From NCBI GenBank assembly GCA_021081985.1, contig GCA_021081985.1_3639.1: a stretch of 64,000 nt of DNA; one strand, written 5' to 3'. The DNA is from a phage. The position numbers and the translations under genes are program-made. Positions 2,974 to 44,559 of the stretch are shown here, one piece after another; position 1 is the stretch's first letter; each line of letters opens with the position of its first letter. The notes under the pieces were generated by a model. That model worked only from the letters and a program-made list of their open reading frames with translations, had not been told where the DNA came from and did no database searches.

Positions 2974-3902
2974 ATTGTACCTCCGAAAAAATCCTCAATA
3001 ATTTCACGACGGAATTGTTCATGCAAACATTCCCAATGTTCTTTAGAATAGTTATCACGCAAATAGTTTAAAAGGTTATAATACTCTTCGTCAACTTTCT
3101 TCTTAGCTTCTTCTGGGTTTCCCCAAATCATATCCCACTTGTTCTTACCGCCACGCATCAAAAATTTCTTCGCCAAATAGTGTGGTGATTTTATCTTCAA
3201 GAGAAGATCTTGCTGTCCTGTAGCAGCACGTACAACAAACCCTTCATGTTTGCATTCTTTAGACATTTTCAGGATGTCTGAAAAGTGCATATTTATGTAA
3301 GTCTCTGGTCGTTTAAAACCGAACTCTTTTGCGATAAGATCCAGAGCTTTTTCACTAAGCATAGAAGTTAATTTGTCTTTATGAAATCGAACACCAATCA
3401 AATACACACCTGCCTTTTCTGGTACAATGTGTGGGTCTGAAGGAGCGCAAATCTCAAAGATAAATGTTGTCTTTGGTTCTTCCACACATGATAACAACAT
3501 TGGCAAATTAGTACATTCTTCCATGATCATACCTTTTGCAAGTTTTGCAAAATCGGAATCTAGAGTTCCTGTTGTTGAAACAATTAGCTCACCATTGTAT
3601 GAGCTTACTGCTGCCATGAAGCCATTAACTTTACGTGCTGCATTCACAACCATATCTTTTGGAAGATCAGTACCGTTCTCTAAATGATTGAAAATCTTGG
3701 TAAAAGGCCACACAACGATGTTGTCATCACTGTCCACAACCATACCACGGCAATCAAGTAAGCGACTGTCTTGATCCCACAAGTTTTCCCAAAAAACTTT
3801 GTTACTGTATTTCAAAACAGACAAACCTTTAAACTCACCACTGGTATAAGTCTTCTTTTTGACAAGGCCTTTTGATACTAAATCTTCAACATTGAATTTC
3901 AT
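2970..3902 (-). CDS. ligase-family nucleotidyltransferase, likely RNA ligase
   Basis: 310 aa; motif I RKVNGF (KxNG), motif IV EGFVVR, motif V LLKIKSP. Confidence 0.6.
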   Translation of the reverse strand: MKFNVEDLVSKGLVKKKTYTSGEFKGLSVLKYSNKVFWENLWDQDSRLLDCRGMVVDSDDNIVVWPFTKIFNHLENGTDLPKDMVVNAARKVNGFMAAVSSYNGELIVSTTGTLDSDFAKLAKGMIMEECTNLPMLLSCVEEPKTTFIFEICAPSDPHIVPEKAGVYLIGVRFHKDKLTSMLSEKALDLIAKEFGFKRPETYINMHFSDILKMSKECKHEGFVVRAATGQQDLLLKIKSPHYLAKKFLMRGGKNKWDMIWGNPEEAKKKVDEEYYNLLNYLRDNYSKEHWECLHEQFRREIIEDFFGGTI

Positions 3903-5362: not shown

Positions 5363-5406
5363 ATGATTCGAAATCATCGAACCATACGATTCGACTCAAT
5401 CGAATC
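5363..5406. repeat. palindromes ATGATTcgaAATCAT and GATTCGA-n5-TCGAATC
   Basis: Perfect inverted repeats read directly in the divergent intergenic region. Confidence 0.6.
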
Positions 5407-5722: not shown

Positions 5723-6129
5723 TCTCGGTGTTGGATTACACACCGGAGTTTGCCTTGAAATCTAATGTTGGGGGTTTCCATGTAAATCCGAAAGCTGGGT
5801 CATACATCGCTGTCCCGACAGAGTGGGTTTTTGATGAACGGTTATCACCAAGCGATCTGCAAAGATTGATACGCTTGTTGTGGAGATACGAGTATTTCAA
5901 GAATCTGAACCCTCTGGGTGGGGAACTGGTATTCTTTCCGTCACAACAATCCTTGTGTGGCCTGTTGGGGTGGAATGAAAACTCACGAACCAAAGTGTCT
6001 GAATTTCTGTCTCGGATGGAGAGCTTTGGTTATATCAGGCGTGTTAGATCAGGATTTCAGGATTCTGATGGTAACGTGAAACCAAGAAATTATATTATCG
6101 TCAATCGTATCAGAGGGGATAAATCATGA
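5704..6129 (+). CDS. hypothetical protein
   Basis: 141 aa ORF, 4-nt overlap with the downstream Prs-like gene; start uncertain because it overlaps the promoter-like site. Confidence 0.4.
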   Translation: MGLWVAFSVLDYTPEFALKSNVGGFHVNPKAGSYIAVPTEWVFDERLSPSDLQRLIRLLWRYEYFKNLNPLGGELVFFPSQQSLCGLLGWNENSRTKVSEFLSRMESFGYIRRVRSGFQDSDGNVKPRNYIIVNRIRGDKS

Positions 6130-6935
6130 ATATTCGTTTGAGTTTGAACAAGCTACATGTGCCAGTTGACCATTTCACATTTAGTGGTGGTGAGGAGCAG
6201 ATTAAGATCGATATGCGTCATGTTCCGCATGGTTCGATAGGTTTTGTTGATATCTTCGCTAGACTCAAGAACTCACAGGATGTGATGTGTTTGGCACTGC
6301 TTGTTGATGCAGTTAATCGTCTTGGCAATTTGGATGTTGGTGTGGAAAAGGTTTTACACCTGCCGTACATTCCGTATGCTCGACAAGACCGAGTTATGAA
6401 CCCTGGAGAATCTCTGTCGGTGAAAGTCTTTGCCACAATGATTAACTCGCTTGGTTTCCACAAAGTCATCGTCGATGATCCACACAGTGACGTATCCGCA
6501 GCACTGATTGATAACGTGAAAATTCGTTCTCAGACTGATTTGTTCTTGAACATGAATTTTGATTTTGATCTGCTTACGGACGAATCGCTTGTGTTGGTTG
6601 CTCCAGATGCAGGTGCACGCAAGAAGACCCAGAAGGTTGCTGATACCTTGGAACTATCTGTGGTTGAAGCAGGTAAAATCCGTGATGTGGGAACAGGGGC
6701 AATCACAGGCACAACAGTGTTTGGTGATGTTGGTGGGAAGACATGCCTGATTGTCGATGATATCTGCGATGGTGGGTTTACGTTTACAAACTTAGCTCAA
6801 GCCTTGAAAGCTGCTGGTGCAAAACGTGTTATTTTGTATGTTACGCATGGAATTTTCTCTCGTGGGAAAGAATTTATTCTCGACGGTGGTGTTGACGAAA
6901 TTTATGCATACTACGACTGGACAGAAAATTTTTAA
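6126..6935 (+). CDS. PRPP-synthetase-like phosphoribosyl pyrophosphokinase
   Basis: 269 aa; PRPP-binding signature LVAPDAGA and IVDDICDGG. Confidence 0.7.
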   Translation: MNIRLSLNKLHVPVDHFTFSGGEEQIKIDMRHVPHGSIGFVDIFARLKNSQDVMCLALLVDAVNRLGNLDVGVEKVLHLPYIPYARQDRVMNPGESLSVKVFATMINSLGFHKVIVDDPHSDVSAALIDNVKIRSQTDLFLNMNFDFDLLTDESLVLVAPDAGARKKTQKVADTLELSVVEAGKIRDVGTGAITGTTVFGDVGGKTCLIVDDICDGGFTFTNLAQALKAAGAKRVILYVTHGIFSRGKEFILDGGVDEIYAYYDWTENF

Positions 6936-6999: not shown

Positions 7000-8715
7000 A
7001 TGCTTCACAAAGAAAGTCCATTGCTGTTTGCAGATTTTTATAAACCAAGTCACATCTCGATGTACGACAAACGTTCACAGTTTGTTCAAGACAACATGAC
7101 ACCACGCAATGCGAAACACTTTGTACACTTTGCAGATGATGACCATCGTGTAATGTTTGCTGGTCTTCAGGGATTTATCAAGTGGTTCCTGATTGACATG
7201 TTTAATAATAATTTCTTTGCTTTACCGAAAGAAAAGGCGATTCAGGATTACAAAGAGATTTGTGATTTGAGCATTGGGAAGGATGCTGTTGAAACTTGGG
7301 GTTTTGAGAGATTGCATGATCTTGGATATCTCCCAATTGAAATTAGAGCTTTGCCTGAAGGAACTCTTGTTCCTGTTCAGGTTCCTATGTTCACGATTCA
7401 GAACACGCACCCTGATTTTTACTGGCTGCCAAACTTCCTTGAGAGCGTGATCTCCTCGGAGACTTGGAAGACAATTACCACGGCAACGACTTTCTGGCAA
7501 TATCGTAAACTATCAGAACTGTGGGCAAAGAAAACATGTGATAACAACGATCACGTTCCTTTCCAGAACCATTGTTTTGCATACCGTGGTGAAGCTGGAA
7601 CACATGACGCAGCACAGAGCGAATTTGGGCAACTGATTAGCTCAATGGGCACAGATACAATTCCAGCGATTGTTTACGCAAATCGCTATTACAACATGAA
7701 AGGTCGCTTTGTTGCTGGGTCTATTCCCGCATCTGAGCATAGCGTAGCGACAACGAACATTGGTTTTATTGTTGAGCGTATCCAGCAGGAAAATCCTGAC
7801 ATGTCGCTTGCTGAAGCACGTTTTCGTGCTGAAGTTGAGTTCTTAAAGCGTTATGCAACAGAGATTTTTCCGTCAGGCTATGCTTCATACGTCGCAGACA
7901 GCTATGATTTTTGGGCAATCATTACACAAGCAGCCAAAATCCTGAAAGATGAGATTATGTCTCGTGATGGCAAGCTGGTCTTCCGACCGGACAGTGGGAT
8001 CCCAGAGCACATCATTGCTGGCTATCGTGTGTGCTCTCAGGAAGAATGGGCAACGGGACAGTGCTGTGATATGGATGCTGTGCTGTTTAAAAATGGCAAA
8101 TATGTCACTCTGTACGAGATGTCCAGAGACACTTCTTGGATGCGAGATTCGGAAGGCAACCTCGTAGATTGGAAATCTTTGACAGGTGATGAATTTACAA
8201 ATTATCTTACCAAAGAGGAGGTTAAGGGTGCTGTACAATGCTTGTGGGAAATCTTTGGTGGTAGTGTAAACTCTTTGGGTTACAAAGTTCTTGATAGCCA
8301 TGTTGGTTTAATCTACGGAGACTCTATCACAATCTCTCGTGCTAAAGAGATCTTTGAGCGCCTTGAAGAACGAGGCTTTGCTTCCAGCAACATTGTGTTT
8401 GGTGTAGGATCTTATACAACGCAATATACAACCCGTGATTCTCTTGGGATGGCTGTAAAAGCTACTGGTGCTGTGATTGATGGCAGACAAGTAATGGTTG
8501 TAAAAGAGCCTAAGACTGATCTTGGGAAGAAATCTGCGAAAGGTTTTGTTAAAGTTATTCGTGGTGATGATGGTGAGTTGAAGCTGGTAGATAATCTTGG
8601 TATTAATCAGGTATCTGACCCTGACAACGAGCTTAGAACAGTTTTTGTTAATGGTAAGCTGCTTGTGGATGAGGATCTTGAAGAAATTCGTCAAAGAGCT
8701 TTGTCACAGCTTTAG
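7000..8715 (+). CDS. nicotinamide phosphoribosyltransferase family protein
   Basis: 571 aa; N-terminus LFADFYKPSH and overall length typical of NAMPT/NadV. Confidence 0.75.
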   Translation: MLHKESPLLFADFYKPSHISMYDKRSQFVQDNMTPRNAKHFVHFADDDHRVMFAGLQGFIKWFLIDMFNNNFFALPKEKAIQDYKEICDLSIGKDAVETWGFERLHDLGYLPIEIRALPEGTLVPVQVPMFTIQNTHPDFYWLPNFLESVISSETWKTITTATTFWQYRKLSELWAKKTCDNNDHVPFQNHCFAYRGEAGTHDAAQSEFGQLISSMGTDTIPAIVYANRYYNMKGRFVAGSIPASEHSVATTNIGFIVERIQQENPDMSLAEARFRAEVEFLKRYATEIFPSGYASYVADSYDFWAIITQAAKILKDEIMSRDGKLVFRPDSGIPEHIIAGYRVCSQEEWATGQCCDMDAVLFKNGKYVTLYEMSRDTSWMRDSEGNLVDWKSLTGDEFTNYLTKEEVKGAVQCLWEIFGGSVNSLGYKVLDSHVGLIYGDSITISRAKEIFERLEERGFASSNIVFGVGSYTTQYTTRDSLGMAVKATGAVIDGRQVMVVKEPKTDLGKKSAKGFVKVIRGDDGELKLVDNLGINQVSDPDNELRTVFVNGKLLVDEDLEEIRQRALSQL

Positions 8716-9575: not shown

Positions 9576-9604
9576 CTTGACAATGTAGATCATACAGGAT
9601 AACA
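9576..9604 (+). promoter_or_regulatory. sigma70-like promoter upstream of tRNA-Met
   Basis: TTGACA, 17 nt, TAACAT, about 22 nt before the tRNA 5' end. Confidence 0.5.
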
Positions 9605-9626
9605 TCATCTCATACCAAAGAGATAC

Positions 9627-9702
9627 GGCCCCTTAGCTCAGTGGTTAGAGCAGGTGACTCATAATCGCTTGGTCGCTGGTTAAAGTCCAGCAGGGGCCAC
9701 CA
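9627..9702 (+). tRNA. tRNA-Met (CAU)
   Basis: Acceptor GGCCCCT/AGGGGCC, anticodon loop CTCATAA, T-arm GGTTAAAGTCC, encoded CCA. Confidence 0.8.
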
Positions 9703-9754
9703 AATGTGGCACACGAAATAAACTAGGTTTATTGTTTTCGGAGGAGAAAACTTA

Positions 9755-10078
9755 ATGGCTAAGAAACAGTCTGCTAAAAAGGTATCAGCTATCGAGGCGA
9801 TCAAGCAACCTTTTCAGTTTGAATCAAAATCCACGCAGACACATTCTGCACCGCACGATGTGCGTCTTGGTGGCAAAACGCAAACTGTAGCAGTTCTGAA
9901 AAAACGCAAAGATGAAGACGGTAATACTGAAATGTATTATGAATCTGTGTCTCGTGTCATTGGTGGTGAAGTGATTTCTGCTTCCTATCGTATCCGTACT
10001 GGGAAAACAAAGCGTGAACGAGAAGTGAAACAGAAAACAAGCACTCCTGTAGGAAACGTTAAGAAAACTAAAAAATAA
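9755..10078 (+). CDS. hypothetical Lys-rich basic protein
   Basis: 107 aa ORF directly after tRNA-Met. Confidence 0.4.
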   Translation: MAKKQSAKKVSAIEAIKQPFQFESKSTQTHSAPHDVRLGGKTQTVAVLKKRKDEDGNTEMYYESVSRVIGGEVISASYRIRTGKTKREREVKQKTSTPVGNVKKTKK

Positions 10079-10154
10079 TTTACTGACGAGAGTGCCACCG
10101 TGAGCCAGCGTCATTAAACAAAGGGAATCACGGACATTCAGGAGGGTTGAGATT

Positions 10155-10346
10155 ATGATAGGATCTTTGCTTAAGATTGCAAGCGATGTAACAACAACGG
10201 CTGTTGAAGTGACTGCTGCGGTAACAACTCCGTTTGTTGATTTAGCATCAGATGCTATAGCAGCAGCAGACGAGATGATTTTGTCACCGACATCTGATCT
10301 TGTCCAAGATCTTTGTGATTCTATAAAAGATGCTGTAAAAGATTAA
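10155..10346 (+). CDS. hypothetical small acidic protein
   Basis: 63 aa, rich in Asp/Glu/Ala/Thr. Confidence 0.35.
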   Translation: MIGSLLKIASDVTTTAVEVTAAVTTPFVDLASDAIAAADEMILSPTSDLVQDLCDSIKDAVKD

Positions 10347-10354
10347 AATTTTTC

Positions 10355-10383
10355 TTGACATAGTTTTTGTTTTTCTGTATAGT
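10355..10383 (+). promoter_or_regulatory. sigma70-like promoter
   Basis: TTGACA, 17 nt, TATAGT. Confidence 0.55.
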
Positions 10384-10419
10384 TACTTTATCAAAGCTAA
10401 TTTACATAGGAGAGATTGA

Positions 10420-11067
10420 ATGTCTACTAAGATTTCCGTAACTCGTGCACTTGCTTCTATCTCTAAGATTGAAGATAAGATCAATAAGCGCATTTATAAC
10501 CTTGAATGTATTAAGATTGCAAAAGGAACTGAGAATAATTGTAAGATTCCTGGTTATATCGGCTCTGTTGATGATTTTAAGAAATCTGCGATCAACGACT
10601 ATCAAAGTCTGCAAGACCTCTTGGCAGTTCGCGATGAACTGAAGGCAAAAATTGTCAAGTCTAATGCTGAGACAATTGTCAAAATTGGTAAGGTGTCTAT
10701 GACAGTTGCTGAGGCAATCGAACGCAAACGGACGATTTGCTTTAAACAAGAGTTGTTAAACAAACTTTGTGCACAGCGTGCTTCTGCACAGCTTCTTCTG
10801 GCAAAAGAAGAAAAATCTCTGGAAGATAAACTTGAAAATGCCAGAGCGCCATATATCCAACGTGATAAAGCGCCAGATGCAGAGCAGATTAAGACTGTGG
10901 AAGCTCCCATTCGAATGATGAACACACCATCGGTTGTGGATCCTCTTGAACTGGCTTCTAAGATTCGTTCTCTTGAAGAAGAGATTGAAGATTTCTTGTC
11001 TAACGTTGATTTTGCGTTGTCTGAGTCAAACGCTAAGACAGAAATTGAGATTGAGCACTCTCTCTAA
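10420..11067 (+). CDS. hypothetical coiled-coil protein
   Basis: 215 aa, charged and helix-rich. Confidence 0.5.
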   Translation: MSTKISVTRALASISKIEDKINKRIYNLECIKIAKGTENNCKIPGYIGSVDDFKKSAINDYQSLQDLLAVRDELKAKIVKSNAETIVKIGKVSMTVAEAIERKRTICFKQELLNKLCAQRASAQLLLAKEEKSLEDKLENARAPYIQRDKAPDAEQIKTVEAPIRMMNTPSVVDPLELASKIRSLEEEIEDFLSNVDFALSESNAKTEIEIEHSL

Positions 11068-11432
11068 AAGGCTCTGATAATATCATTATCGTTCCTTTGT
11101 TTTGAAATTTAAAACATTGCTTTTGATTAACGAAGTTTACATCATCTTGCCTCCTGGGGATTGGAGGTTAAATATTCCCCACCATGTATCGTATATGTAT
11201 GAGGATAATACAGAACATAGATGCAGCGAGGCACACGAAGATGCTTTGTTGTTTCCACTAAGTAAAAGTTCATACAATAAAGGTCAATGGTTAAATGTGA
11301 AAGATGAAACTTGAAAGTTGACTCTTGAAAGATAAAATTTCGTTTATCATCTGAAATCCTTGACACAGGTTATGGCTCACAAGATATGGTCTGTAAAGCC
11401 TCAAGGCTGTTAATCGGAAGCAATGTCTTATT

Positions 11433-11507
11433 GCTCGTATAGCTCAACGGTAGAGCACCTGCCTTGTAAGCAGGGGGTTGCAGGTTCGAAACCTGCTGCG
11501 AGCACCA
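11433..11507 (+). tRNA. tRNA-Thr (UGU)
   Basis: Acceptor GCTCGTA/TGCGAGC, D-arm GCTC..GAGC, anticodon loop CTTGTAA, T-arm GCAGGTTCGAAACCTGC, CCA. Confidence 0.8.
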
Positions 11508-11509
11508 AT

Positions 11510-11606
11510 GCTGGGTAAGCCCTTTGGCAAGGGCGAGGATTTATAATCCTGAAAATAGACGGGCTAGCCGTTGAATACATAGGTGGTTCGATTCCATCAC
11601 CCAGCC
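11510..11606 (+). ncRNA. non-canonical tRNA-like RNA
   Basis: tRNA-type acceptor (GCTGGGT/ACCCAGC), D-arm and T-arm (GGTGGTTCGATTCCATC), but the anticodon position is a closed hairpin AGGATT-tat-AATCCT followed by a second tight hairpin; about 97 nt, no CCA. Confidence 0.4.
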
Positions 11607-11807
11607 ACAAGTTTGTTTTATAGTGTATTAGCTTATATTATTCGATATAAATGCCTGATCAGCATTTGTTGTGAATGAGGCATACAATGCGTGAGAAAGC
11701 TATCGGTGCGCAACGTTGATTTCAAACGTAGTCATGCTCGTAGAGCACCAACTGTGGAAGTTGGAGGGTGGTTGAGTAACCATACACTATAAAGCATTCT
11801 TTAAAAT

Positions 11808-11892
11808 GGGCGGTGTCCCCACACAAGTCTTCTAAACTTGTACTTAAAAAGTGGGAAGGAAGTGAGAGGTTCGATTCCTCCACCGTCTACCA
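11808..11892 (+). ncRNA. non-canonical tRNA-like RNA
   Basis: 3' end TTCGATTCC...ACCGTCTACCA with a pairing 5' segment GGGCGGT, no D-arm, internal hairpin ACAAGT-cttctaa-ACTTGT. Confidence 0.3.
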
Positions 11893-11968
11893 GATTAACC
11901 CCAACTTGAGAATCGTCAGCGCGGCTCGTAAGACCCACTCTATAGGTTCTCTACCTGGGGTGCTTATT

Positions 11969-12045
11969 GCACGGTTGCCGGAATTTGGTTACGGGTCTGT
12001 CTGCAAAACGGATATATGTCGGTTCAAGTCCGACACCGTGCTCCA
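11969..12045 (+). tRNA. tRNA-Cys (GCA)
   Basis: Acceptor GCACGGT/ACCGTGC, anticodon arm TCTGT-CTGCAAA-ACGGA, T-arm GTCGGTTCAAGTCCGAC, CCA; D-stem imperfect. Confidence 0.65.
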
Positions 12046-12082
12046 AACTTTCAATTTCTTGGCAAATATGTTAAAATACCAC

Positions 12083-12111
12083 TTGACAGATATGTTTTTA
12101 TTTGATAATAT
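12083..12111 (+). promoter_or_regulatory. sigma70-like promoter
   Basis: TTGACA, 17 nt, TAATAT, followed by RBS and ATG at 12132. Confidence 0.6.
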
Positions 12112-12131
12112 CATTAAGTGGGGTTTTTAAA

Positions 12132-12479
12132 ATGGCTACTAAGCAGCTTACAAAACGTAGAAGAGGAAAAGGTCGTCCTCTGAAAGAGGAATCTAATGCA
12201 ATTCAGTTAGAGAAAAATATCCTAGATTTGAAAACGAATCTGATTGCAATGATTCCTGAAGCTCATCAGGTTCTTAGGGATTTGATGAAGAATGTGAATA
12301 CAAAAGACAATATCAGAGAAAATATCGCTCGTTATGTTATTGAGAAAGGTGAGCAGATGCTTTCTGATTACTTTGATGAGGAAAACGAAGAGTTACTCGA
12401 AAAAGATAACTCAGAAAAAGCGCCTATTAAGGCAGCCAAACCATTCTCGACGGATATTGTTCAATTCAAACAAGGTTAA
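12132..12479 (+). CDS. hypothetical protein with basic N-terminus
   Basis: ORF track 12102..12479; start moved to the ATG after the promoter and RBS (MATKQLTKRRRGKGRP...). Confidence 0.45.
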   Translation: MATKQLTKRRRGKGRPLKEESNAIQLEKNILDLKTNLIAMIPEAHQVLRDLMKNVNTKDNIRENIARYVIEKGEQMLSDYFDEENEELLEKDNSEKAPIKAAKPFSTDIVQFKQG

Positions 12480-12480
12480 T

Positions 12481-12570
12481 GTGTCGTTAGACCGTAGGGG
12501 TAGCGGGGGAGACTGTAAATCTCCTGTCTCGAAAGGGACTCGGGTAGTTCGACTCTATCACGGCACACCA
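12481..12570 (+). tRNA. tRNA-Tyr (GUA), type II
   Basis: Acceptor GTGTCGT/ACGGCAC, anticodon arm GGAGA-CTGTAAA-TCTCC, long variable arm, T-arm GGTAGTTCGACTCTATC, CCA. Confidence 0.75.
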
Positions 12571-12638
12571 ACTAAATCTGTACTGGCTTTGATGTGTGAC
12601 GATACCCTCCAATCGTGGTTGTTGGGTCAGTACAGTTT

Positions 12639-12714
12639 GGGAGTGTAGATCAGTTAGTAGATCGCTCGACCGATAATCGAGAGGACGTAGGGGCAGAGCC
12701 TACCACTCCCACCA
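12639..12714 (+). tRNA. tRNA-Ile (GAU)
   Basis: Acceptor GGGAGTG/CACTCCC, D-arm GATC..GATC, anticodon arm CTCGA-CCGATAA-TCGAG, CCA; position 33 is C and the T-loop is atypical. Confidence 0.6.
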
Positions 12715-12719
12715 AATAT

Positions 12720-12794
12720 GCATCCATAGTTTAATTGGGAAAACTACAGCCTTCCAAGCTGAAGTCGAGGGTTCGATGCCCTCTGGATGCTCCA
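12720..12794 (+). tRNA. tRNA-Gly (UCC)
   Basis: Acceptor GCATCCA/TGGATGC, anticodon loop CTTCCAA, T-arm GAGGGTTCGATGCCCTC, CCA. Confidence 0.75.
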
Positions 12795-12919
12795 GTTAAA
12801 AGATGTCAATGAAATCCGCTTGGGTCAACTGAAGACCGTAACAAATTCCATGGGGTTGTGTTTGCGGTCCAACCCTAGACATCTTCTATCTTTAGTAGAA
12901 GGCTTTAATACGGACGAGT

Positions 12920-13150
12920 ATGATGGTTTCTAAATTAATCATAACAAGGCATCATAATGCTAAAGAAATAGAGATTGTGAATGCTGCTGGCACTCTTGTG
13001 CTAAAAGTTGGTAAAGACTGTCCTTTTGAATTGTGCCAGAAGGAACTTTTAAGTTTGTGCGGTTTCAGGTTTAAACAGATTATCTTTGAAAATGCTTTTC
13101 AATATTCAGACTTAAACCAGTACATTATATCTAGGCTTGATCCTGCATGA
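12920..13150 (+). CDS. hypothetical small protein
   Basis: 76 aa ORF, 4-nt overlap with the next gene. Confidence 0.35.
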   Translation: MMVSKLIITRHHNAKEIEIVNAAGTLVLKVGKDCPFELCQKELLSLCGFRFKQIIFENAFQYSDLNQYIISRLDPA

Positions 13151-13710: not shown

Positions 13711-13792
13711 ATGAGAGTAGCGTAACTTCACTGGGTGAAGGCTGGCCTCCAAAACCAGTGACTAAGAGGTTCGATTCCTCACTCTCGTGCCA
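13711..13792 (+). tRNA. tRNA-like, possibly tRNA-Trp (CCA)
   Basis: Acceptor ATGAGAG/CTCTCGT, loop CTCCAAA, T-arm GAGGTTCGATTCCTC, CCA; D-region is over-long and non-canonical. Confidence 0.4.
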
Positions 13793-13982: not shown

Positions 13983-14726
13983 ATGTATGCACTCTCCCCA
14001 AGAAAAAAAAATGGAAAACAGATATTTAATTTGTTGAAAAGCGGAAAAGGCTTCTCAAACCCGCTTCAATCAGGTCTTTCTCTGGTTGGTGGTAAAGTAA
14101 GTAGTCTATCTTCTTTATCTTCCTCTATTTCTTCGGTAACTAACCCAGCTATAAAGGCTCAATTAGCTGCCGCAGGTTTGACAACTGGCGTTTTATCAAA
14201 TTTTACTTCGTCTCTTGGTTCTGTTACAAGCACGACAAAAACGCTTGTTGATTATGGTCAGAAATCTGTTGAAGAGTTCTCCCAAAGAATGCACGCAGCG
14301 AGTAATTATATGAGTACTCTGAGCAGAATGGGAGAAAAGACAAGTTGTTCAATATTTAGTGACGTTATGTCTGTAGCCACTGATTTAGGTAAGAAAGCTA
14401 TGGATGCCGTTAATTCCGCGATGGATGCGGTGAACGATGTTATGTCTCAATTGCAAGATGCAATAAATAAGGGTTTGAATACAATATCTAGTTTGGCGAG
14501 TAAAGCTGTCTCAGCGATAAACAAAGGGATCCAGAAAATGTCTGAGTATGCTAGCCAAGTGACAAAGATGATTGAAGATGAAGCAAAGAAGTTGGCAGAC
14601 TACTTAAAGACAAGTGCTGAAGGATTTCTCGCAGATATCCTACCTGATTGGTTTAACGATTCTTGTAAATCTGGTATAGTTGACCAGATTGCTACACCAG
14701 AGATGAAAGAAGTTCTTAAAAAGTAA
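13983..14726 (+). CDS. hypothetical protein with Ser/Thr-rich N-terminus and amphipathic helical repeats
   Basis: 247 aa; repeated AMDAVN/SAINKG-type helices. Confidence 0.5.
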   Translation: MYALSPRKKNGKQIFNLLKSGKGFSNPLQSGLSLVGGKVSSLSSLSSSISSVTNPAIKAQLAAAGLTTGVLSNFTSSLGSVTSTTKTLVDYGQKSVEEFSQRMHAASNYMSTLSRMGEKTSCSIFSDVMSVATDLGKKAMDAVNSAMDAVNDVMSQLQDAINKGLNTISSLASKAVSAINKGIQKMSEYASQVTKMIEDEAKKLADYLKTSAEGFLADILPDWFNDSCKSGIVDQIATPEMKEVLKK

Positions 14727-16208: not shown

Positions 16209-16284
16209 TGCGAGTTTGAAGTCTGGTGACTTCGCTGGTCTCATAAGCCAGTCCAGATTGGTTCGATCCCAATACTCGCAACCA
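16209..16284 (+). tRNA. tRNA-Met (CAU), second copy
   Basis: Acceptor TGCGAGT/ACTCGCA, D-arm GAAG..CTTC, anticodon arm CTGGT-CTCATAA-GCCAG, T-arm ATTGGTTCGATCCCAAT, CCA. Confidence 0.75.
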
Positions 16285-18631: not shown

Positions 18632-19978
18632 TTGAGTAAAGTATTTGGACCTGCCAGTCCTAAACAAAAAATGATTTTGGAGAGTAAAGCCCAAATTCTA
18701 ATAATTGGCGGGGCCGCCGGGTGTTTGTCTAAAGACCACGAGGTGTTGACACCATCTGGCTGGATTAAGATATCAGAATGGTCAGGACAGGACATTCTGC
18801 AATATGATAAAGCCACTGGGGAGGCTAAATTTATCCCTCCTTTAGAGTTTGTTAAACTCCCTTGTGAAAAACTTACAAGAATAGAAGGTAATGGTATTTG
18901 TCAAGAGCTATCTGACGAACATACTGTGATTTATAAACCAGACTATAAATCACAGCCAAGAACACTTTCTTTTTCTGAAGTGGCAGAAAGACATAACAAC
19001 TCTGTTAAAAAAGGTTGGACAGGTAAGTTCATAACTACATTTAACTATGATGGGCCTGGGATAGACATGACAGAAGGGGAATTAAGGCTTCAGGTTGCTG
19101 TCATGGCTGATGGGAGAGTTGTTAAAGAAGGGAAAGATAATTATACACAGATGCGCTTTGCTAAAAAGCGTAAATATGACCGCTTAATCGAACTTTGTAA
19201 AAAGTTTGGATTAAGATATGAAGATAGAGGATCAAAACCCAGTGAAAGATATACCACTGGGGAACAGTACGAGGTCATTGTATGGCCTAAATATCCTGAT
19301 AAAAAATTTACAGAGAAATACTATCAGTGTTCAAATGAACAACTGGAGATAATACTTGATGAGATTTTTCATTGGGATGGTTCTTTTTGTAAGCCATATG
19401 GCGGTAAAACACATAATAGCTTTACAGGTAGATATTTTACTGCTCATAAGACGAACGCTGATTTTGTTCAGTTTATAGGATCTTCTCTTGGTTATAATAC
19501 CACCATAAGCCATGATACAAGAAGTGGAAAGGACAGTTATACTGTTAATATTATGGCTAGAGGAAAAGGATTAAGGTCACTGGCTAATAAAGACAGAAAA
19601 GCTGAGTTTAAAGAGTTTATACCTACGGATGGGTTTAAATACTGCTTTGTAACACAAACAGGTTTCTTTGTTACCAGACTAGAAGATTGTGTGGTTGTCA
19701 CTGGGAATAGTGGAAAATCATATCTCCTACAATTGATGCCGCTTGCTTATGTCGATGACCCGCAGACAGCATGTATAATGTTTCGTAGGACAACACCTCA
19801 ATTGACAGGTGCAGGTGGACTTTTTGATACAGCGAAAAGTATTTATTTGCAACTCGATAAGGAATGGAAGCCGAAGTTCAGGGAGAAAGCTCTGGAAGCA
19901 ATTTTCCCATCTGGGGCAAAGGTGTTGTGGAGACACATGGAGTATGAGAATAACAAATTAGATCATCAGGGTGAATAG
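18632..19978 (+). CDS. terL: terminase large subunit, 5' part (N-extein, intein, C-extein segment)
   Basis: TTG start with RBS GGAGG; Walker A split as IIGGAAG | intein | SGKSYLL; translation stops at 19978 where the putative intron begins. Confidence 0.75.
   Translation: MSKVFGPASPKQKMILESKAQILIIGGAAGCLSKDHEVLTPSGWIKISEWSGQDILQYDKATGEAKFIPPLEFVKLPCEKLTRIEGNGICQELSDEHTVIYKPDYKSQPRTLSFSEVAERHNNSVKKGWTGKFITTFNYDGPGIDMTEGELRLQVAVMADGRVVKEGKDNYTQMRFAKKRKYDRLIELCKKFGLRYEDRGSKPSERYTTGEQYEVIVWPKYPDKKFTEKYYQCSNEQLEIILDEIFHWDGSFCKPYGGKTHNSFTGRYFTAHKTNADFVQFIGSSLGYNTTISHDTRSGKDSYTVNIMARGKGLRSLANKDRKAEFKEFIPTDGFKYCFVTQTGFFVTRLEDCVVVTGNSGKSYLLQLMPLAYVDDPQTACIMFRRTTPQLTGAGGLFDTAKSIYLQLDKEWKPKFREKALEAIFPSGAKVLWRHMEYENNKLDHQGE
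18722..19708 (+). mobile_element. intein in terminase P-loop (329 aa), with LAGLIDADG-like endonuclease motifs
   Basis: Begins CLSKDHEVLT (block A-like Cys1), ends VVVTGN followed by Ser+1; internal LQVAVMADGRV and LDEIFHWDGS; flanking residues reconstitute GGAAGSGKS. Confidence 0.7.
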
Positions 19979-21162
19979 CTTGCCCTTCGTGCCTATAACG
20001 GTGGAACTCCCTATGGGAAAATACCGTGCCACAGAATATGGAAATATAAAATCTGGGTGTAACGACTATCTCCGATGAGTGTAGGAGAGTAGAATCACAA
20101 GCGATTGGTGATCCAAACGGCACGCCAAGGATGGAAGATATAGTCTGTTCCACATGGAAACATGTGGCGGGTGTTTTAGCACACCGCCTCAGTGTAGCGA
20201 ACTGAGGGGACAATAAGTTGCAGTATACCTTTATAGGTTTTGATGAGGGTTGGTATTAGCTCTCTTTAAACCTCCCTAATTGTCGGGGAAACCTTTATTG
20301 TTTACATAACCAAGCAAATGTGGTAACATGTTTGTGGCCTACACTAACTATGTAGGGTATGGTAATATCATGTAAAATTAGGTAATCCGCAGCGAAGCAT
20401 CCCTATGGGATGAACGTTCAACGACTATCGCTTACGGGCGTTAGGGCCAAGCGGTGAGGGAAACCTCCAGTCTTTCAGACTGCCGAAATGGGAGGATATT
20501 TGCGTAATAATATTAAAAAATGTGTTGACTGCCATAGAGAACTTCCTCTTGATAAATTTTTTCTTTCATCAAAAAGTAGTGATGGATATTCTGGAGCTTG
20601 TAAAGAATGCTACATGTATTATAGACTTAACAACTCCAGAAAGAATAAGGATATGATTAAGAAAGAGGATGCTGCCATGTTTATACAAGATTTGGTATCA
20701 TCTGGTGAACTTTTCGAATGCAAAACTTGCCGTAAGAAGTTTTTAGCTGATAATTTTTATACTAAGAGAGATTATGGTAAAGTGTATCTTGCAACAAATA
20801 GATGTAAAAGATGTGAAAAGTTTTACCAAATAGAGAGAAAGTTTGGCATCTCTGAGGAATATTACTTTTCAATGTTGGAAAGGCAGGGGTTTAAGTGCGA
20901 GATATGTAAAATACCTTTGGAAGATTATAAAAATCAAGGGTATAGAGATTTTTTCTCCGTAGATCATGACCATAAGACAGGGAAGATTAGAGGTTTGTTA
21001 TGCGATAAGTGTAACAGGGCTTTGGGATTTTTCGGAGAAAATGAGGAAACACTTTTAAATGCCGCAGAATATATACGCAAATATAAGATATAGTCTGGTC
21101 TGCATGGTGACATGCAGCAGCACGTAGTGGTGCGGGATAAGAGTAGCGATCTTATCTGAACA
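19979..21162 (+). mobile_element. putative group I intron carrying an HNH homing endonuclease ORF
   Basis: Non-coding structured flanks around the HNH ORF; 38-nt core (20383-20420) and 3' segment (21114-21162) nearly identical to sequences in the DNA polymerase interruption; terminase frame reopens right after an in-frame TGA at about 21160. Boundaries approximate. Confidence 0.5.
20488..21093 (+). CDS. HNH homing endonuclease
   Basis: 201 aa; Cys-rich N-terminus and HNH motif SVDHDHKTGKIRGLLCDKCN. Confidence 0.8.
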   Translation: MGGYLRNNIKKCVDCHRELPLDKFFLSSKSSDGYSGACKECYMYYRLNNSRKNKDMIKKEDAAMFIQDLVSSGELFECKTCRKKFLADNFYTKRDYGKVYLATNRCKRCEKFYQIERKFGISEEYYFSMLERQGFKCEICKIPLEDYKNQGYRDFFSVDHDHKTGKIRGLLCDKCNRALGFFGENEETLLNAAEYIRKYKI

Positions 21163-21240: not shown

Positions 21241-22281
21241 ATGGTTATCTCTTGTAACCCTGATCCAGATCATAAGATTAAAGAGTTGATTTCTTGGTAT
21301 TTAGACGATGAGGGGTATCCTATACCTGAACGTGACGGGGTGATTAGATGGTTTATAAGACGTGACGGGGAGTTTATCTGGGGTGAATCAGAGCAAGAAT
21401 TAATTGAAAAGTATTGGGATGGCAAGGATGAGAAAAGAAAGCCTAAACCACTTTCATTTTCCTTCATTTCCGCAACAATATTCGATAATCCTCCCATGCT
21501 GGAGAATAACCCAGATTATCTAGCATTCCTTGAAGGTCTTCCAGAGGTAGAAAAAGCCCAGTTATTGCATGGAAACTGGAACGCAAGACCTGAAGGGGCA
21601 AACTATTTCCAGAGATCTTATTTAAAAGAGGTTCCCTGCTTACCTCTCGGTGTTGTATCTGTTCGTCCGTATGATAAAGCAGGTACAGAAAGAACATCTG
21701 GAAACAGATATCCTGACTTTACAGCATCTGTTAAGGTAAGTAAAGACAATGATGGTTTTTACTACTTGTCTGGTGATTATTGTCCTGAATTTTTTGATGA
21801 TGGTAGATATTCGACTCAAACGCAGGGAAGATTCTGTAAAAAAGCTGGGGAACGTGATGTTATCATTAAGAAACAGGCTTATTTTGATGGTGATGATGTC
21901 ACCATAATTTTCAGTGTTGACCCAGGACAAGCAGGAATAAGTGAATTTTTAACAAGCTCCCGTGAACTAATAGCGGAAGGGTTTACAGTAGAAAAAGATC
22001 CTACACCAAGCAATAAATCAAAATTAACACGATTCACACCGTTTGCAAAACTTGCTCAAGCAGGTATGGTGAGAATAGTTCGTGATAGTTTTGATCCTAA
22101 AACTTATGAAGCCCTTATGACAGAGCTTGAAAAGTTCAATGGGGAAAGGAGTACTACGACAAGAAAAGACGATTGGGTCGACGCCATTTCTTCTGGGATA
22201 AATTATCTTGAAAAAGAAGAAATAGTCAAACCTGTTGTTATTCCAAAAATTGTAGCTCCTACCTTGTATAAAAGAATATAA
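21241..22281 (+). CDS. terL: terminase large subunit, 3' part
   Basis: 346 aa from first ATG; reading frame is open upstream to about 21163, so the true exon probably starts there without its own start codon. Confidence 0.7.
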   Translation: MVISCNPDPDHKIKELISWYLDDEGYPIPERDGVIRWFIRRDGEFIWGESEQELIEKYWDGKDEKRKPKPLSFSFISATIFDNPPMLENNPDYLAFLEGLPEVEKAQLLHGNWNARPEGANYFQRSYLKEVPCLPLGVVSVRPYDKAGTERTSGNRYPDFTASVKVSKDNDGFYYLSGDYCPEFFDDGRYSTQTQGRFCKKAGERDVIIKKQAYFDGDDVTIIFSVDPGQAGISEFLTSSRELIAEGFTVEKDPTPSNKSKLTRFTPFAKLAQAGMVRIVRDSFDPKTYEALMTELEKFNGERSTTTRKDDWVDAISSGINYLEKEEIVKPVVIPKIVAPTLYKRI

Positions 22282-43065: not shown

Positions 43066-44559
43066 GTGGCTGCTCAATTTGGATTAAATGACTACGGTTT
43101 TTCAATTCCGTCCCTTGATGACTTGATAACAGACACTAAGCAATCCCTTATTAGAGCTTTTGGTGAAAACTTTAACACCCAAACTAACTCTGTTGTTGAT
43201 AAGATCACTACTATTTTCAACGAAAGGGAATATCAATTAATTCTTTTGGCTGCATCTATTTATGCAGCACAAACGCTAGCAGGGGCAGAAGGTATATATC
43301 TTGACGAGATTCTTGGTCGTCGTGGCATATTCCGTAGAGGAAAAACCAAAGGGTCCGGTACTGTTCAAATGGTAATTAATAACACAGTGCCGTATAACAT
43401 GATTTATGATGCCGCAACATACAGTATTGACGGTGGAAATTTTGTGTTAACAGAAGATACCGCCGTTGCTGGCAATATCATAGCGCAGCAAATAACCAAT
43501 CAAGATTGGGTTCTTGGTAACTACACCATCCAGATAGTTAACCAGAATGATGGGACAACAAAGACACTGAACCTATCTCTGAAAAACAAAACTCCAAACA
43601 GTACCGAATTAAACTCTTTTATGATGGCTATGAAAGAGTTTATAGTCGATAATACAACTTATCTGAATGAAGATAAGATCTTTATCGAATCTTCTTCAGG
43701 AAGTATGTTTATAGGTTATGATCAAAATAAGAAAATGATTGGTCTGAATGCCCCTGTGGACTTTAGAACATCACCCCTACTTGGTCAAAGAACAATAACC
43801 ATGGATGTTATTGCTGTTGAAGCAGGAGAAATATCTAGAGAAGCAGAGACAGTTACTAACATAAGCCCAACACCAAGTGGTTTTGTTAGCTTGACGAACA
43901 GGGAAGCATTCAGTGATGGTACAGATGTCGAGACAGATACAGAATATAAGCTGAGAGCCTCAAATACAACATCCGCAGGTGCAGCCGCAACACGACCTGC
44001 TATTGTTTCTGCTGTTTTAAATGTGCCTGGTGTAAGTAAGGTTAAAATTTTCTCCAACAATACTGGTGTGACAAACGAGTACGGTGTTCCAGCGTATAAG
44101 TTTGAGACAGTAGTCTATGGTGGGGCCACAGAAGATATCAGTAAGGCACTTTATAATACTATAGCACTCTCTAATGCTACTTATGGTGATGTATTCTATG
44201 ATGTGACTACAGAAGATGACCAAGTAGAAAGAATTTATCATAGCAAGGCAAAAGTAAGGCAACTTGAAATTCGTGTCAGATATAAAGGTAAATTACTATC
44301 CCTTACAGAACAGAACACGATCAGGGATTCCCTTAAAGCTGTTGTTGATCCTCTTAACATTGCAGATACGTTGTACAATATTCAACTTGTTTCTGCTGTG
44401 GGGTCATCCATCTCATCAGGCAGATTTACTCAACTTTTAGTAGATGTCAAAAACAAAGGTGAGCCAGACAGTACGTACACTAATGATGATATTGTTGCTA
44501 CTATGACAGAAGTTTTCGCTGTAGAGTTAAATGACATAACTTTCCAGCAAGTTCTTTAA
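43066..44559 (+). CDS. baseplate J-like protein
   Basis: 497 aa, size and order match J-like baseplate subunits. Confidence 0.5.
   Translation: MAAQFGLNDYGFSIPSLDDLITDTKQSLIRAFGENFNTQTNSVVDKITTIFNEREYQLILLAASIYAAQTLAGAEGIYLDEILGRRGIFRRGKTKGSGTVQMVINNTVPYNMIYDAATYSIDGGNFVLTEDTAVAGNIIAQQITNQDWVLGNYTIQIVNQNDGTTKTLNLSLKNKTPNSTELNSFMMAMKEFIVDNTTYLNEDKIFIESSSGSMFIGYDQNKKMIGLNAPVDFRTSPLLGQRTITMDVIAVEAGEISREAETVTNISPTPSGFVSLTNREAFSDGTDVETDTEYKLRASNTTSAGAAATRPAIVSAVLNVPGVSKVKIFSNNTGVTNEYGVPAYKFETVVYGGATEDISKALYNTIALSNATYGDVFYDVTTEDDQVERIYHSKAKVRQLEIRVRYKGKLLSLTEQNTIRDSLKAVVDPLNIADTLYNIQLVSAVGSSISSGRFTQLLVDVKNKGEPDSTYTNDDIVATMTEVFAVELNDITFQQVL

Follow-up and report, generated by a model that had tools for sequence, protein, structure and literature searches.

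The crystal structure of the small terminase subunit (TerS) of phage PaP3 places an alpha4-alpha5 oligomerization hairpin at residues 64-105 and an acidic C-terminal tail further on, after a beta-strand (PMC7672466). For the subfamily Vequintavirinae, the rV5 genome paper makes no mention of a small terminase (PMC3606486), and in a Certrevirus paper only the large subunit (TerL) was identifiable (PMC9769974). Here, we analyze a 64,000-nucleotide (nt) stretch of phage DNA (GenBank assembly GCA_021081985.1, contig GCA_021081985.1_3639.1; hereafter the window), concentrating on positions 10155-12479, on the products of three genes in this span, p63, p215, and p115, and on a structured RNA downstream of p215. 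Window positions 9600-13000 are 97% identical over 99% of their length to Escherichia phage Av-05 (Vequintavirinae, genus Avunavirus), and four further related phages match them at 96% identity. Judged by this similarity, the window belongs to an Avunavirus-like phage of the Vequintavirinae. The span appears to be a conserved piece of the tRNA region of that subfamily, in which three genuine protein genes stand alongside one large structured RNA and several tRNAs; host RNA polymerase would transcribe them all rightward from consensus promoters.

We tentatively propose, at somewhat less than an even chance for the two parts together, that p215 and the RNA constitute an undescribed ribonucleoprotein module (or a protein plus a stable RNA) of T5-like, rV5-like, Vibrio, Bacillus, and uncultured phages, and that p115 represents a class of TerS in which a ring of AT-hook-like arms, rather than helix-turn-helix domains, recognizes DNA. 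The RNA is the most unusual object of the span and had been passed over in an earlier, sequence-only reading of the same DNA. The features that this reading did point to are real; the functional labels it gave them mostly do not hold. The RNA and the gene that precedes it are laid out as follows.

10355-10383, plus strand: p215 promoter, sigma-70-type (TTGACA-17-TATAGT), with 11 of 12 consensus positions, the best site in the 8 kb scanned.
10420-11067, plus strand: p215, a coiled-coil-rich protein of the T5.085 family (phrog_1491).
11114-11426, plus strand: predicted structured RNA of about 310 nt downstream of p215, recognized by conserved blocks, covariation, and a covariance model.
11114-11132 with 11408-11426, plus strand: closing stem P1, which pairs the two ends of the RNA.
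CCTCC 11150-11154 with GGAGG 11163-11167, and TGGGG 11155-11159 with CCCCA 11177-11181, plus strand: apparent H-type pseudoknot.
11276-11338, plus strand: heptamer array of nine in-register nTnAAAg units (Tandem Repeats Finder period 7/14).
11354-11411, plus strand: 3' domain (AAAUCC-helix-GGC) with a covarying helix and a variable hairpin.

The p215 gene family is followed by conserved sequence that is predicted to form a paired RNA. Every p215 homologue that we opened has an unannotated gap of 360-550 nt after it. An alignment of these gaps contains blocks conserved between rV5-like phages and T5, and RNAalifold joins the gap ends by an 18-bp stem in which compensatory changes are present. 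Across 81 loci (80 from IMG/VR plus the window), the best long-range helix of the same geometry lies above the 95th percentile of shuffles in 58. These helices are 13-22 bp long and span 265-375 nt. Their sequences are unrelated among loci; at the inner ends, the 5' strand keeps a conserved ...CG and the 3' strand a conserved UG....

For the 3' domain, conserved flanks rather than complementarity anchored the alignment. Pairing in the 5-bp helix of this domain amounts to 95.8%, and 29 cells carry changes on both sides. The observed covariation was matched in 0 of 500 shuffles, and pairing in slid controls was 36-53%. A covariance model built on this domain matches once per locus in 68 of 92 sources. 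Every match is downstream of the gene and shares its strand, and in the loci checked it falls 230-400 nt past the p215-family stop codon. Within the 64-kb window the model has exactly one match, at 11354-11411 (E = 8e-8). For the pseudoknot, about ten different fully complementary versions of the second stem are visible by eye. An automated pseudoknot scan did not separate this element from shuffled sequence (9 of 34 cases above the 95th percentile), so that the pseudoknot rests on manual comparison.

Rfam contains no relevant match to either the window copy or the T5 copy at E-values up to 10, and we found no account of the RNA in the literature on phage structured RNAs or on T5.085; the literature likewise yielded nothing pertinent on the PHROG families or on rv5_gp070. 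The pseudo-ToxI of phiTE is also an RNA of this phage subfamily, but the paper text gave no grounds for a link. Two promoter-like sites within the RNA are probably false positives: one at 11311-11338 falls inside the heptamer array, and relatives do not share the TTGACA at 11360-11365.

The RNA occurs after p215 homologues in T5-like, rV5-like, Vibrio, and Bacillus phages. The T5 copy lies on the minus strand of NC_005859 at about 43,142-43,504 (7142-7505, minus strand, of our locus L005). A tRNA begins within about 100 nt after the RNA in about 12 of 48 diverse loci, and a few loci have a tRNA nested inside it. At a further locus (L067, 1840-2240; IMGVR_UViG_3300044612_001810), the p215 homologue precedes a perfect inverted repeat of 68 bp, which spans 400 nt and greatly exceeds the usual closing stem in length.

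Together, p215 and the RNA would be a module common to many unrelated large virulent phages and frequently placed within a tRNA cluster. This module is probably a ribonucleoprotein, or a protein plus a stable RNA from the same transcript. The stable RNA would be released from the p215 transcript, possibly by cleavage at the long P1 duplex and by RNase P where the following tRNA begins, and would probably work with p215. The nine-unit UnAAAg array and the tmRNA-like layout hint at a role in tRNA function or translation, or at a decoy for a host ribonuclease.

The protein itself is a homologue of T5.085, which sits among the replication and nucleotide-metabolism genes of T5; elsewhere, p215-family genes are found in tRNA regions. 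Scans of Pfam, NCBIfam, and PADLOC gave no family match for p63, p215, or p115, and p215 likewise had no match in the PDB and none that was fiber-like. Several hundred p215 homologues are labeled "tail fiber protein." This inherited label is unsupported, because there is no match to a fiber fold and the genes do not lie in a tail module, and it is very probably wrong. Two other identities were considered and rejected. The T5 anti-retron protein Rad is a 189-amino acid (aa) Toprim/primase-like protein (10.1101/2023.03.15.532788), a description that in T5 fits T5.076 and not T5.085, and p215 has no Toprim match. Nor is p215 a paralogue of the adjoining 203-aa coiled-coil protein in Seunavirus PVP-SE1 (E = 24).

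The second part of our proposal concerns p115, which begins downstream of its own promoter.

12083-12111, plus strand: p115 promoter, sigma-70 with extended -10 (TTGACA-17-TG-TAATAT), from a promoter scan, serving p115 and the tRNAs that follow.
12132-12479, plus strand: p115, 115 aa from the ATG (phrog_3330, rV5 gp070 family), candidate small terminase.

p115 carries an invariant AT-hook-like core. The protein consists of a basic AT-hook-like arm (residues 8-18), three helices (18-89), an acidic linker, and a C-terminal PF(T/S)T(D/E)I motif. It had been described as beginning with the AT-hook-like motif KRRRGKGRPLK; the motif is real and its GRP core invariant, but it occupies residues 8-18 and not the very start. 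Within it, RRRGKGRPLK (9-18) presents a G-R-P core with basic flanks, and G14-R15-P16 is invariant in 21 close and 20 distant relatives. Among the 21 close relatives, which share 49-81% identity, R11 and the KEESNA following the core are invariant as well. In a family alignment reaching down to 21-30% identity, G-R-P is the sole invariant feature, and many members read KRGRGRPxK; the C-terminal PF(T/S)T(D/E)I peptide is kept even in distant clades. A HMMER scan of 1.84 billion representatives yielded 25 clusters, which, bar a few weak tail matches, are stand-alone proteins of 60-145 aa.

The AlphaFold2 model of p115 (pLDDT 64.8) has a disordered arm at residues 1-17, helices at 18-40, 42-53, and 55-89, and a disordered acidic linker. 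AT_hook (PF02178) is the sole Pfam family matched by several p115-family members (5 of 20, best E = 0.0097), and the window protein itself does not match it at E-values up to 10. We consider that the GRP arm probably binds DNA and that it would be the DNA-binding element that replaces the helix-turn-helix in p115.

The gene order in distant relatives is the stronger part of the case for TerS, and the homology part is weak. All distant relatives tested were confirmed in phrog_3330 (E = 1e-12 to 1e-27). In three lineages, the gap between the p115 homologue and TerL is 0-1 nt. The p115 homologue of Aeromonas phage TS9 has its stop at 3833, and a piece of TerL runs from 3834, followed by an HNH endonuclease, the remainder of TerL, and the portal. 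In metagenomic contigs L016 and L020, the homologue ends at 5375 and 5354, and TerL begins at 5376 and 5355, respectively. At three further distant loci, distances of 0.35, 0.9, and 2 kb separate the homologue from a downstream TerL of the same strand; these loci have TerL and a Mu-type portal downstream, and an S78 protease too where the locus extends far enough. In rV5-like phages, the homologue is about 2 kb from TerL. Two contigs with distant p115 members are too short for their terminase neighborhood to be judged.

This neighborhood bears on another explanation of p115, in which it is an early AT-hook DNA-binding protein, HMGA-like or similar to an H-NS/Lsr2 antagonist, that remodels the nucleoid or regulates transcription. 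A regulator would not be expected to stay immediately upstream of TerL in distant lineages. Recurrent homology, weak as it is, also leads to small terminases alone. Among 20 p115-family members compared with PHROGs, "terminase small subunit" is the only functional label that recurs (phrog_2538 in four members and phrog_7344 in two), in six member-family pairs with weak E-values of 0.0025-0.2. The remaining labels come from single weak matches: DNA-binding protein, transcriptional regulator, tail protein, and ScpB.

When the p115 family profile was compared with PDB sequences, the weak matches included the small terminases 7joq and 6w7t, from Pseudomonas phages NV1 and PaP3 (E about 0.5). An hhalign comparison with an NV1/PaP3-type TerS alignment placed p115 residues 33-74 on TerS 67-108 (probability 57.8%, E = 1e-4), and the aligned stretch would be the counterpart of the PaP3 alpha4-alpha5 hairpin. 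Pfam TerS families match neither p115 nor its family members. In overall architecture, p115 has what a TerS has, namely a DNA-binding N-terminus, central helices, and a C-terminal tail, with putative functions for these parts. Among the other window ORFs (open reading frames) scanned near TerL, none resembles a small terminase. Given the gene order in distant relatives and the weak profile matches, we read p115 as, most likely, the subfamily's small terminase subunit, an assignment we make with moderate confidence.

Several observations count against this assignment. No single TerS match is significant database-wide, and the hhalign probability is only 58%, over 42 columns. A Foldseek search of PDB and BFVD gave no usable fold match for the AlphaFold2 model of p115, which is itself of modest confidence (pLDDT 64.8). 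Contig L019, which carries a distant p115 member, has no terminase within the available 5 kb. In the window, p115 (ending at 12479) is on the same strand as TerL (starting at 18632) and 6.1 kb upstream of it. Finally, p115 has a strong sigma-70 promoter of its own, and late expression would be expected of a packaging gene.

This promoter also enters into the reading of p115 as an early protein. A consensus promoter had been claimed for the gene on the sequence alone, and the claim is borne out: TTGACA-17-TAATAT, with a TG extended -10, stands at 12083-12111 and is conserved across genera. In six phages from several Vequintavirinae genera, the TTGACA and the extended -10 TG are invariant, the -10 element is TAAnAT, and the spacer varies; in PVP-SE1, the equivalent site is annotated as a promoter. 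A sigma-70 extended -10 promoter so strongly conserved suggests transcription by unmodified host polymerase. An early DNA-binding role would also suit the invariant GRP with its basic flanks, the AT_hook matches in a quarter of the 20 family members, the HMGA-like layout of basic arm plus acidic tail, and the label "putative regulatory protein" in a few GenBank records. However, one would expect a small terminase to have a DNA-binding arm just as much, and early timing is not favored, because a consensus promoter does not date a gene in rV5-like genomes: rV5 has 33 such promoters spread over the whole genome, late regions included (PMC3606486). In PaP3-type phages, too, another gene can stand between TerS and TerL, and one of these TerS genes is annotated with a sigma-70 promoter. 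We regard an early AT-hook role as unlikely. Distant-relative gene order and the weak profile matches thus favor packaging over the host-takeover function that had been suggested for p115.

If p115 is TerS, its flexible basic arm with the invariant GRP would contact DNA, probably in the minor groove, at an AT-rich packaging start site. The helices would form the ring-building core, and the acidic linker and PF(T/S)T(D/E)I peptide would engage TerL. Within the subfamily, insertion of the tRNA cluster, the lysis genes, and others would have moved TerS and TerL apart.

The p115 promoter may serve mainly the downstream tRNAs, because tRNA-Tyr starts 1 nt after the p115 stop. The following tRNAs and tRNA-like RNA lie downstream of p215, on both sides of p115.

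11433-11507, plus strand: tRNA-Thr (UGU), called by ARAGORN (Rfam tRNA, 73.6 bits), 6 nt past the closing stem of the structured RNA.
11510-11606, plus strand: tRNA-like RNA of 97 nt, whose extra arm is long and whose anticodon arm is aberrant (Rfam tRNA, 33.1 bits; gathering threshold 29).
11969-12045, plus strand: tRNA-Cys (GCA), called by ARAGORN (Rfam, 52.3 bits).
12481-12570, plus strand: tRNA-Tyr (GUA), called by ARAGORN, 1 nt after the p115 stop codon.

The position of p115 among these genes raises a third explanation, that it is an RNA-binding factor of the tRNA operon, such as an antiterminator or a processing or protective factor, acting through its arginine-rich N-terminus. In the Vequintavirinae, p115 is always directly upstream of a tRNA run, and its arm is indeed rich in arginine. 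Outside the subfamily, however, its homologues adjoin the terminase gene with no tRNAs nearby, and an invariant G-R-P is what one typically sees in a minor-groove DNA hook and not in an arginine-rich motif that binds RNA. We therefore give RNA binding only a very slim chance, and continue to prefer TerS.

The 97-nt RNA is not called by ARAGORN, although it folds as a cloverleaf (z-score -3.6). Two foldings of its anticodon arm can be drawn: a 6-bp stem closing a 3-nt loop, or 4 bp closing the loop UUUAUAA. Its counterparts in rV5-like phages share 93.8% identity with it, and no other DNA of the region is so well conserved across genera. In most records it has no annotation; a few give tRNA-OTHER or tRNA-???(atcc). 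A clear tRNA by Rfam (53.4 bits), likewise not called by ARAGORN, is at 12639-12711 (plus strand). Weak tRNA-Sec-like matches at 11807-11889, 13715-13786, and 16210-16279 (plus strand; 29.6-37.4 bits, below gathering) may be degenerate tRNAs.

The gene order of the span is conserved throughout the subfamily, in Seunavirus PVP-SE1, Mydovirus, Henunavirus, Certrevirus, and Vequintavirus. The common order begins with a Prs-like/Nampt-like pair, small ORFs, tRNA-Met, a basic ORF of about 107 aa, and the p63 homologue, and it continues with the p215 homologue, tRNAs, a promoter, the p115 homologue, and further tRNAs. The lysis genes, a split large terminase, and the portal are on the same strand, rightward of p115 in the window. 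The ORFs reported at 10155 (p63) and 12132 (p115) are both real, conserved genes. The three proteins match phrog_9123 (p63, E = 5e-27), phrog_1491 (p215, E = 5e-76), and phrog_3330 (p115, E = 4e-46), and homologues are present in 60, 743, and 232 phage records, respectively. The p215 count comes from tblastn and covers many phage groups; all 60 p63 records are Vequintavirinae-like.

The third protein gene is the first of the span.

10155-10346, plus strand: p63, 63 aa, a small acidic, hydrophobic, all-helical protein (phrog_9123), recognized as an ORF with an AGGAGG ribosome-binding site.

p63 is a conserved protein of unusual charge. It has 11 Asp/Glu and 3 Lys/Arg residues, a net charge of -8, and an isoelectric point (pI) of 4.05. 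Of the 55 plus-strand ORFs in the window, none has a lower pI or a more negative charge per residue, and the main cause of the low pI is the scarcity of basic residues. Acidic residues make up 17.5% (91st percentile of the window), the grand average of hydropathy (GRAVY) is +0.55 (95th percentile), marking a hydrophobic protein, and seven residue types (A, D, V, T, S, L, and I) account for 50 of the 63 positions. The description of p63 as strongly acidic and low in complexity is thus accurate as to pI and composition and overstated as to acidic content. Compared with PVP-SE1, the p63 frame has nonsynonymous and synonymous differences (pN and pS) of 0.26 and 0.67 (dN/dS about 0.19), while in the other two frames pS is 0.21-0.34 and pN 0.37-0.40. 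These values indicate that the p63 protein is under purifying selection. Across 19 relatives, P26, P45, and C54 are invariant, and acidic positions are largely kept, often with D/E swaps. The gene has no promoter of its own and follows tRNA-Met and the basic 107-aa ORF behind a promoter at 9577-9605.

Read from the sequence, Asp and Glu are spaced at i, i+4, and i+7 and face hydrophobic positions, so that the predicted helices are amphipathic with an acidic stripe along one face. This arrangement, together with the lowest pI and most negative charge per residue in the window and a NARP1-like counter-defense operon 1.4 kb upstream, could be taken to support p63 as a DNA-mimic anti-restriction protein that acts like T7 Ocr or ArdA. 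p63 resembles these proteins in small size and low pI, but differs from them in its moderate acidity, its hydrophobicity, and the absence of sequence similarity and of any reliable structural resemblance. Acidic residues account for only 17% of p63, whereas the acidic content of Ocr is roughly 25-30%, and a GRAVY of +0.55 is unusual in a soluble mimic. No relation to anti-restriction or DNA-mimic families was detectable in Pfam, NCBIfam, PADLOC, PHROGs, or PDB sequences. The single match of the p63 profile to PDB sequences was a designed tandem-repeat protein, which reflects composition and not homology.

Structure prediction was among the checks that the sequence-only reading had put forward. 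For p63, AlphaFold2 (19 sequences) predicts two helices, and the pLDDT of 55.5 is below what a fold search or the reading of a mimic surface would need. In most relatives, moreover, the p63 gene overlaps the start of a membrane-peptide gene, which is also at odds with mimicry. With no mimic-family relation, moderate acidity, a hydrophobic composition, and an unreadable structure model, the DNA-mimic label is unsupported, and we consider it highly improbable.

The same overlap suggests a role at the inner membrane. In PVP-SE1, Mydo, Henunavirus, and AV124, the stop of the p63 homologue overlaps the start of a 45-49-aa ORF, and the 45-aa product in PVP-SE1 is annotated with one transmembrane segment (MSGGMIFLAMLVICAIIILW...). 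In those relatives, the gene for the 203-aa coiled-coil protein comes after the membrane-peptide ORF; both are absent from the window. Because its gene overlaps that of a one-pass membrane peptide in most relatives, p63 may act at the membrane. Its partners there could be small membrane proteins of the phage, and the task could be, for instance, the timing of lysis or the exclusion of superinfecting phages; the Avunavirus lineage would then have lost the partner gene. The hydrophobicity of p63 and its richness in small residues (A, T, V, G, and S), as in helix-packing proteins, are in keeping with this. Conversely, judged from the sequence, every segment of p63 is too short or too charged to cross a membrane, purifying selection on p63 persists in a window where the partner is missing, and p63 has no homology to known lysis or exclusion proteins. 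We consider this specific membrane role doubtful. Most likely, p63 is a helical-bundle protein that works via protein contacts; it would act as a bundle with Asp and Glu along one helix face.

Several neighboring genes deserve mention. Directly upstream of p63 in all relatives is the gene for the basic 107-aa protein (9755-10078, plus strand; net charge +14, pI 10.2, phrog_6662), which resembles phiEco32 gp93; its weak Cmr5-like matches (E = 0.001-0.02) are probably spurious. A partnership between this basic protein and the acidic p63 is conceivable. A relationship between p63 and the DUF7217 protein at 13983-14726 was rejected (E = 0.22). Further upstream, Prs-like (6126-6935, plus strand) and Nampt-like (7000-8715, plus strand) genes form a two-gene operon that has, by PHROG labels and gene order, the organization of NARP1 NAD+ reconstitution. 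The NARP1 counter-defense pathway (Adps/Namat) has been described for phage Bas63 (10.1101/2024.02.11.579819). Downstream, the large terminase gene (18632-19978 and 21241-22281, plus strand) is split by an endonuclease VII/HNH-type gene (20488-21093, plus strand), as reported for rV5. Interruption of TerL by an endonuclease is likewise present in distant phages whose p115 homologue abuts TerL.

A TerS assignment would complete the packaging machinery of rV5-like phages, a subfamily that includes therapy and biocontrol phages, and would make p115 a test case for possible DNA recognition by a minor-groove hook as opposed to a helix-turn-helix. The RNA behind T5.085 is present in the model phage T5 and, if real, would be a widespread class of phage RNA with a dedicated protein partner. 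The analysis also corrects two tempting misreadings: that an acidic protein is a DNA mimic, and that an AT-hook with a consensus promoter signifies early takeover.

Compared with AT-hook proteins (PF02178; HMGA; the RGR hooks of H-NS and Lsr2), p115 shares a K/R-flanked G-R-P core in a region of predicted disorder and, with HMGA, an acidic tail after the hook. It differs in having a single copy of the hook in a 115-aa phage protein, and the window sequence RGKGRPLK is below the Pfam reporting threshold. Known TerS proteins differ from p115 and its setting in several respects. In place of their helix-turn-helix, p115 has a basic GRP arm of about 17 residues. No beta-strand is predicted directly after its hairpin, and PF(T/S)T(D/E)I follows the acidic linker. 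In the Vequintavirinae, TerL is 2-6 kb away with the tRNA cluster between, and the similarity is too weak for proven homology. On the other hand, p115 is like the TerS of PaP3 and NV1 (6w7t and 7joq) and of Bacillus phage SF6 in its size class of about 100-160 aa and in its DNA-binding N-terminus, helical core, and acidic tail. Its motif P.A...L..lM.d......vR..aAk.Il..G aligns with the alpha4-alpha5 hairpin of PaP3 and NV1. The distant p115 relatives, like TerS genes, are just upstream of TerL, and in PaP3-type phages, too, a gene (for lysozyme) separates TerS from TerL.

The structured RNA has its own nearest counterparts. It differs from ROOL, GOLLD, T4 species 1/2, and the T5 "RNAX" in having no Rfam match, in being tied to the T5.085/p215 family, and in its heptamer array. 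It is like them in being a large, ornate phage RNA of a tRNA region with paired ends. From tmRNA it differs in its closing stem (13-22 bp, against a 7-bp acceptor), in having neither a CCA end nor a tag reading frame, in not being called by ARAGORN, and in a repeat period of 7, which is not a codon multiple. The order of its parts is nevertheless that of tmRNA: an end stem, then a pseudoknot, a single-stranded stretch, and a 3' hairpin domain stacked on the closing stem.

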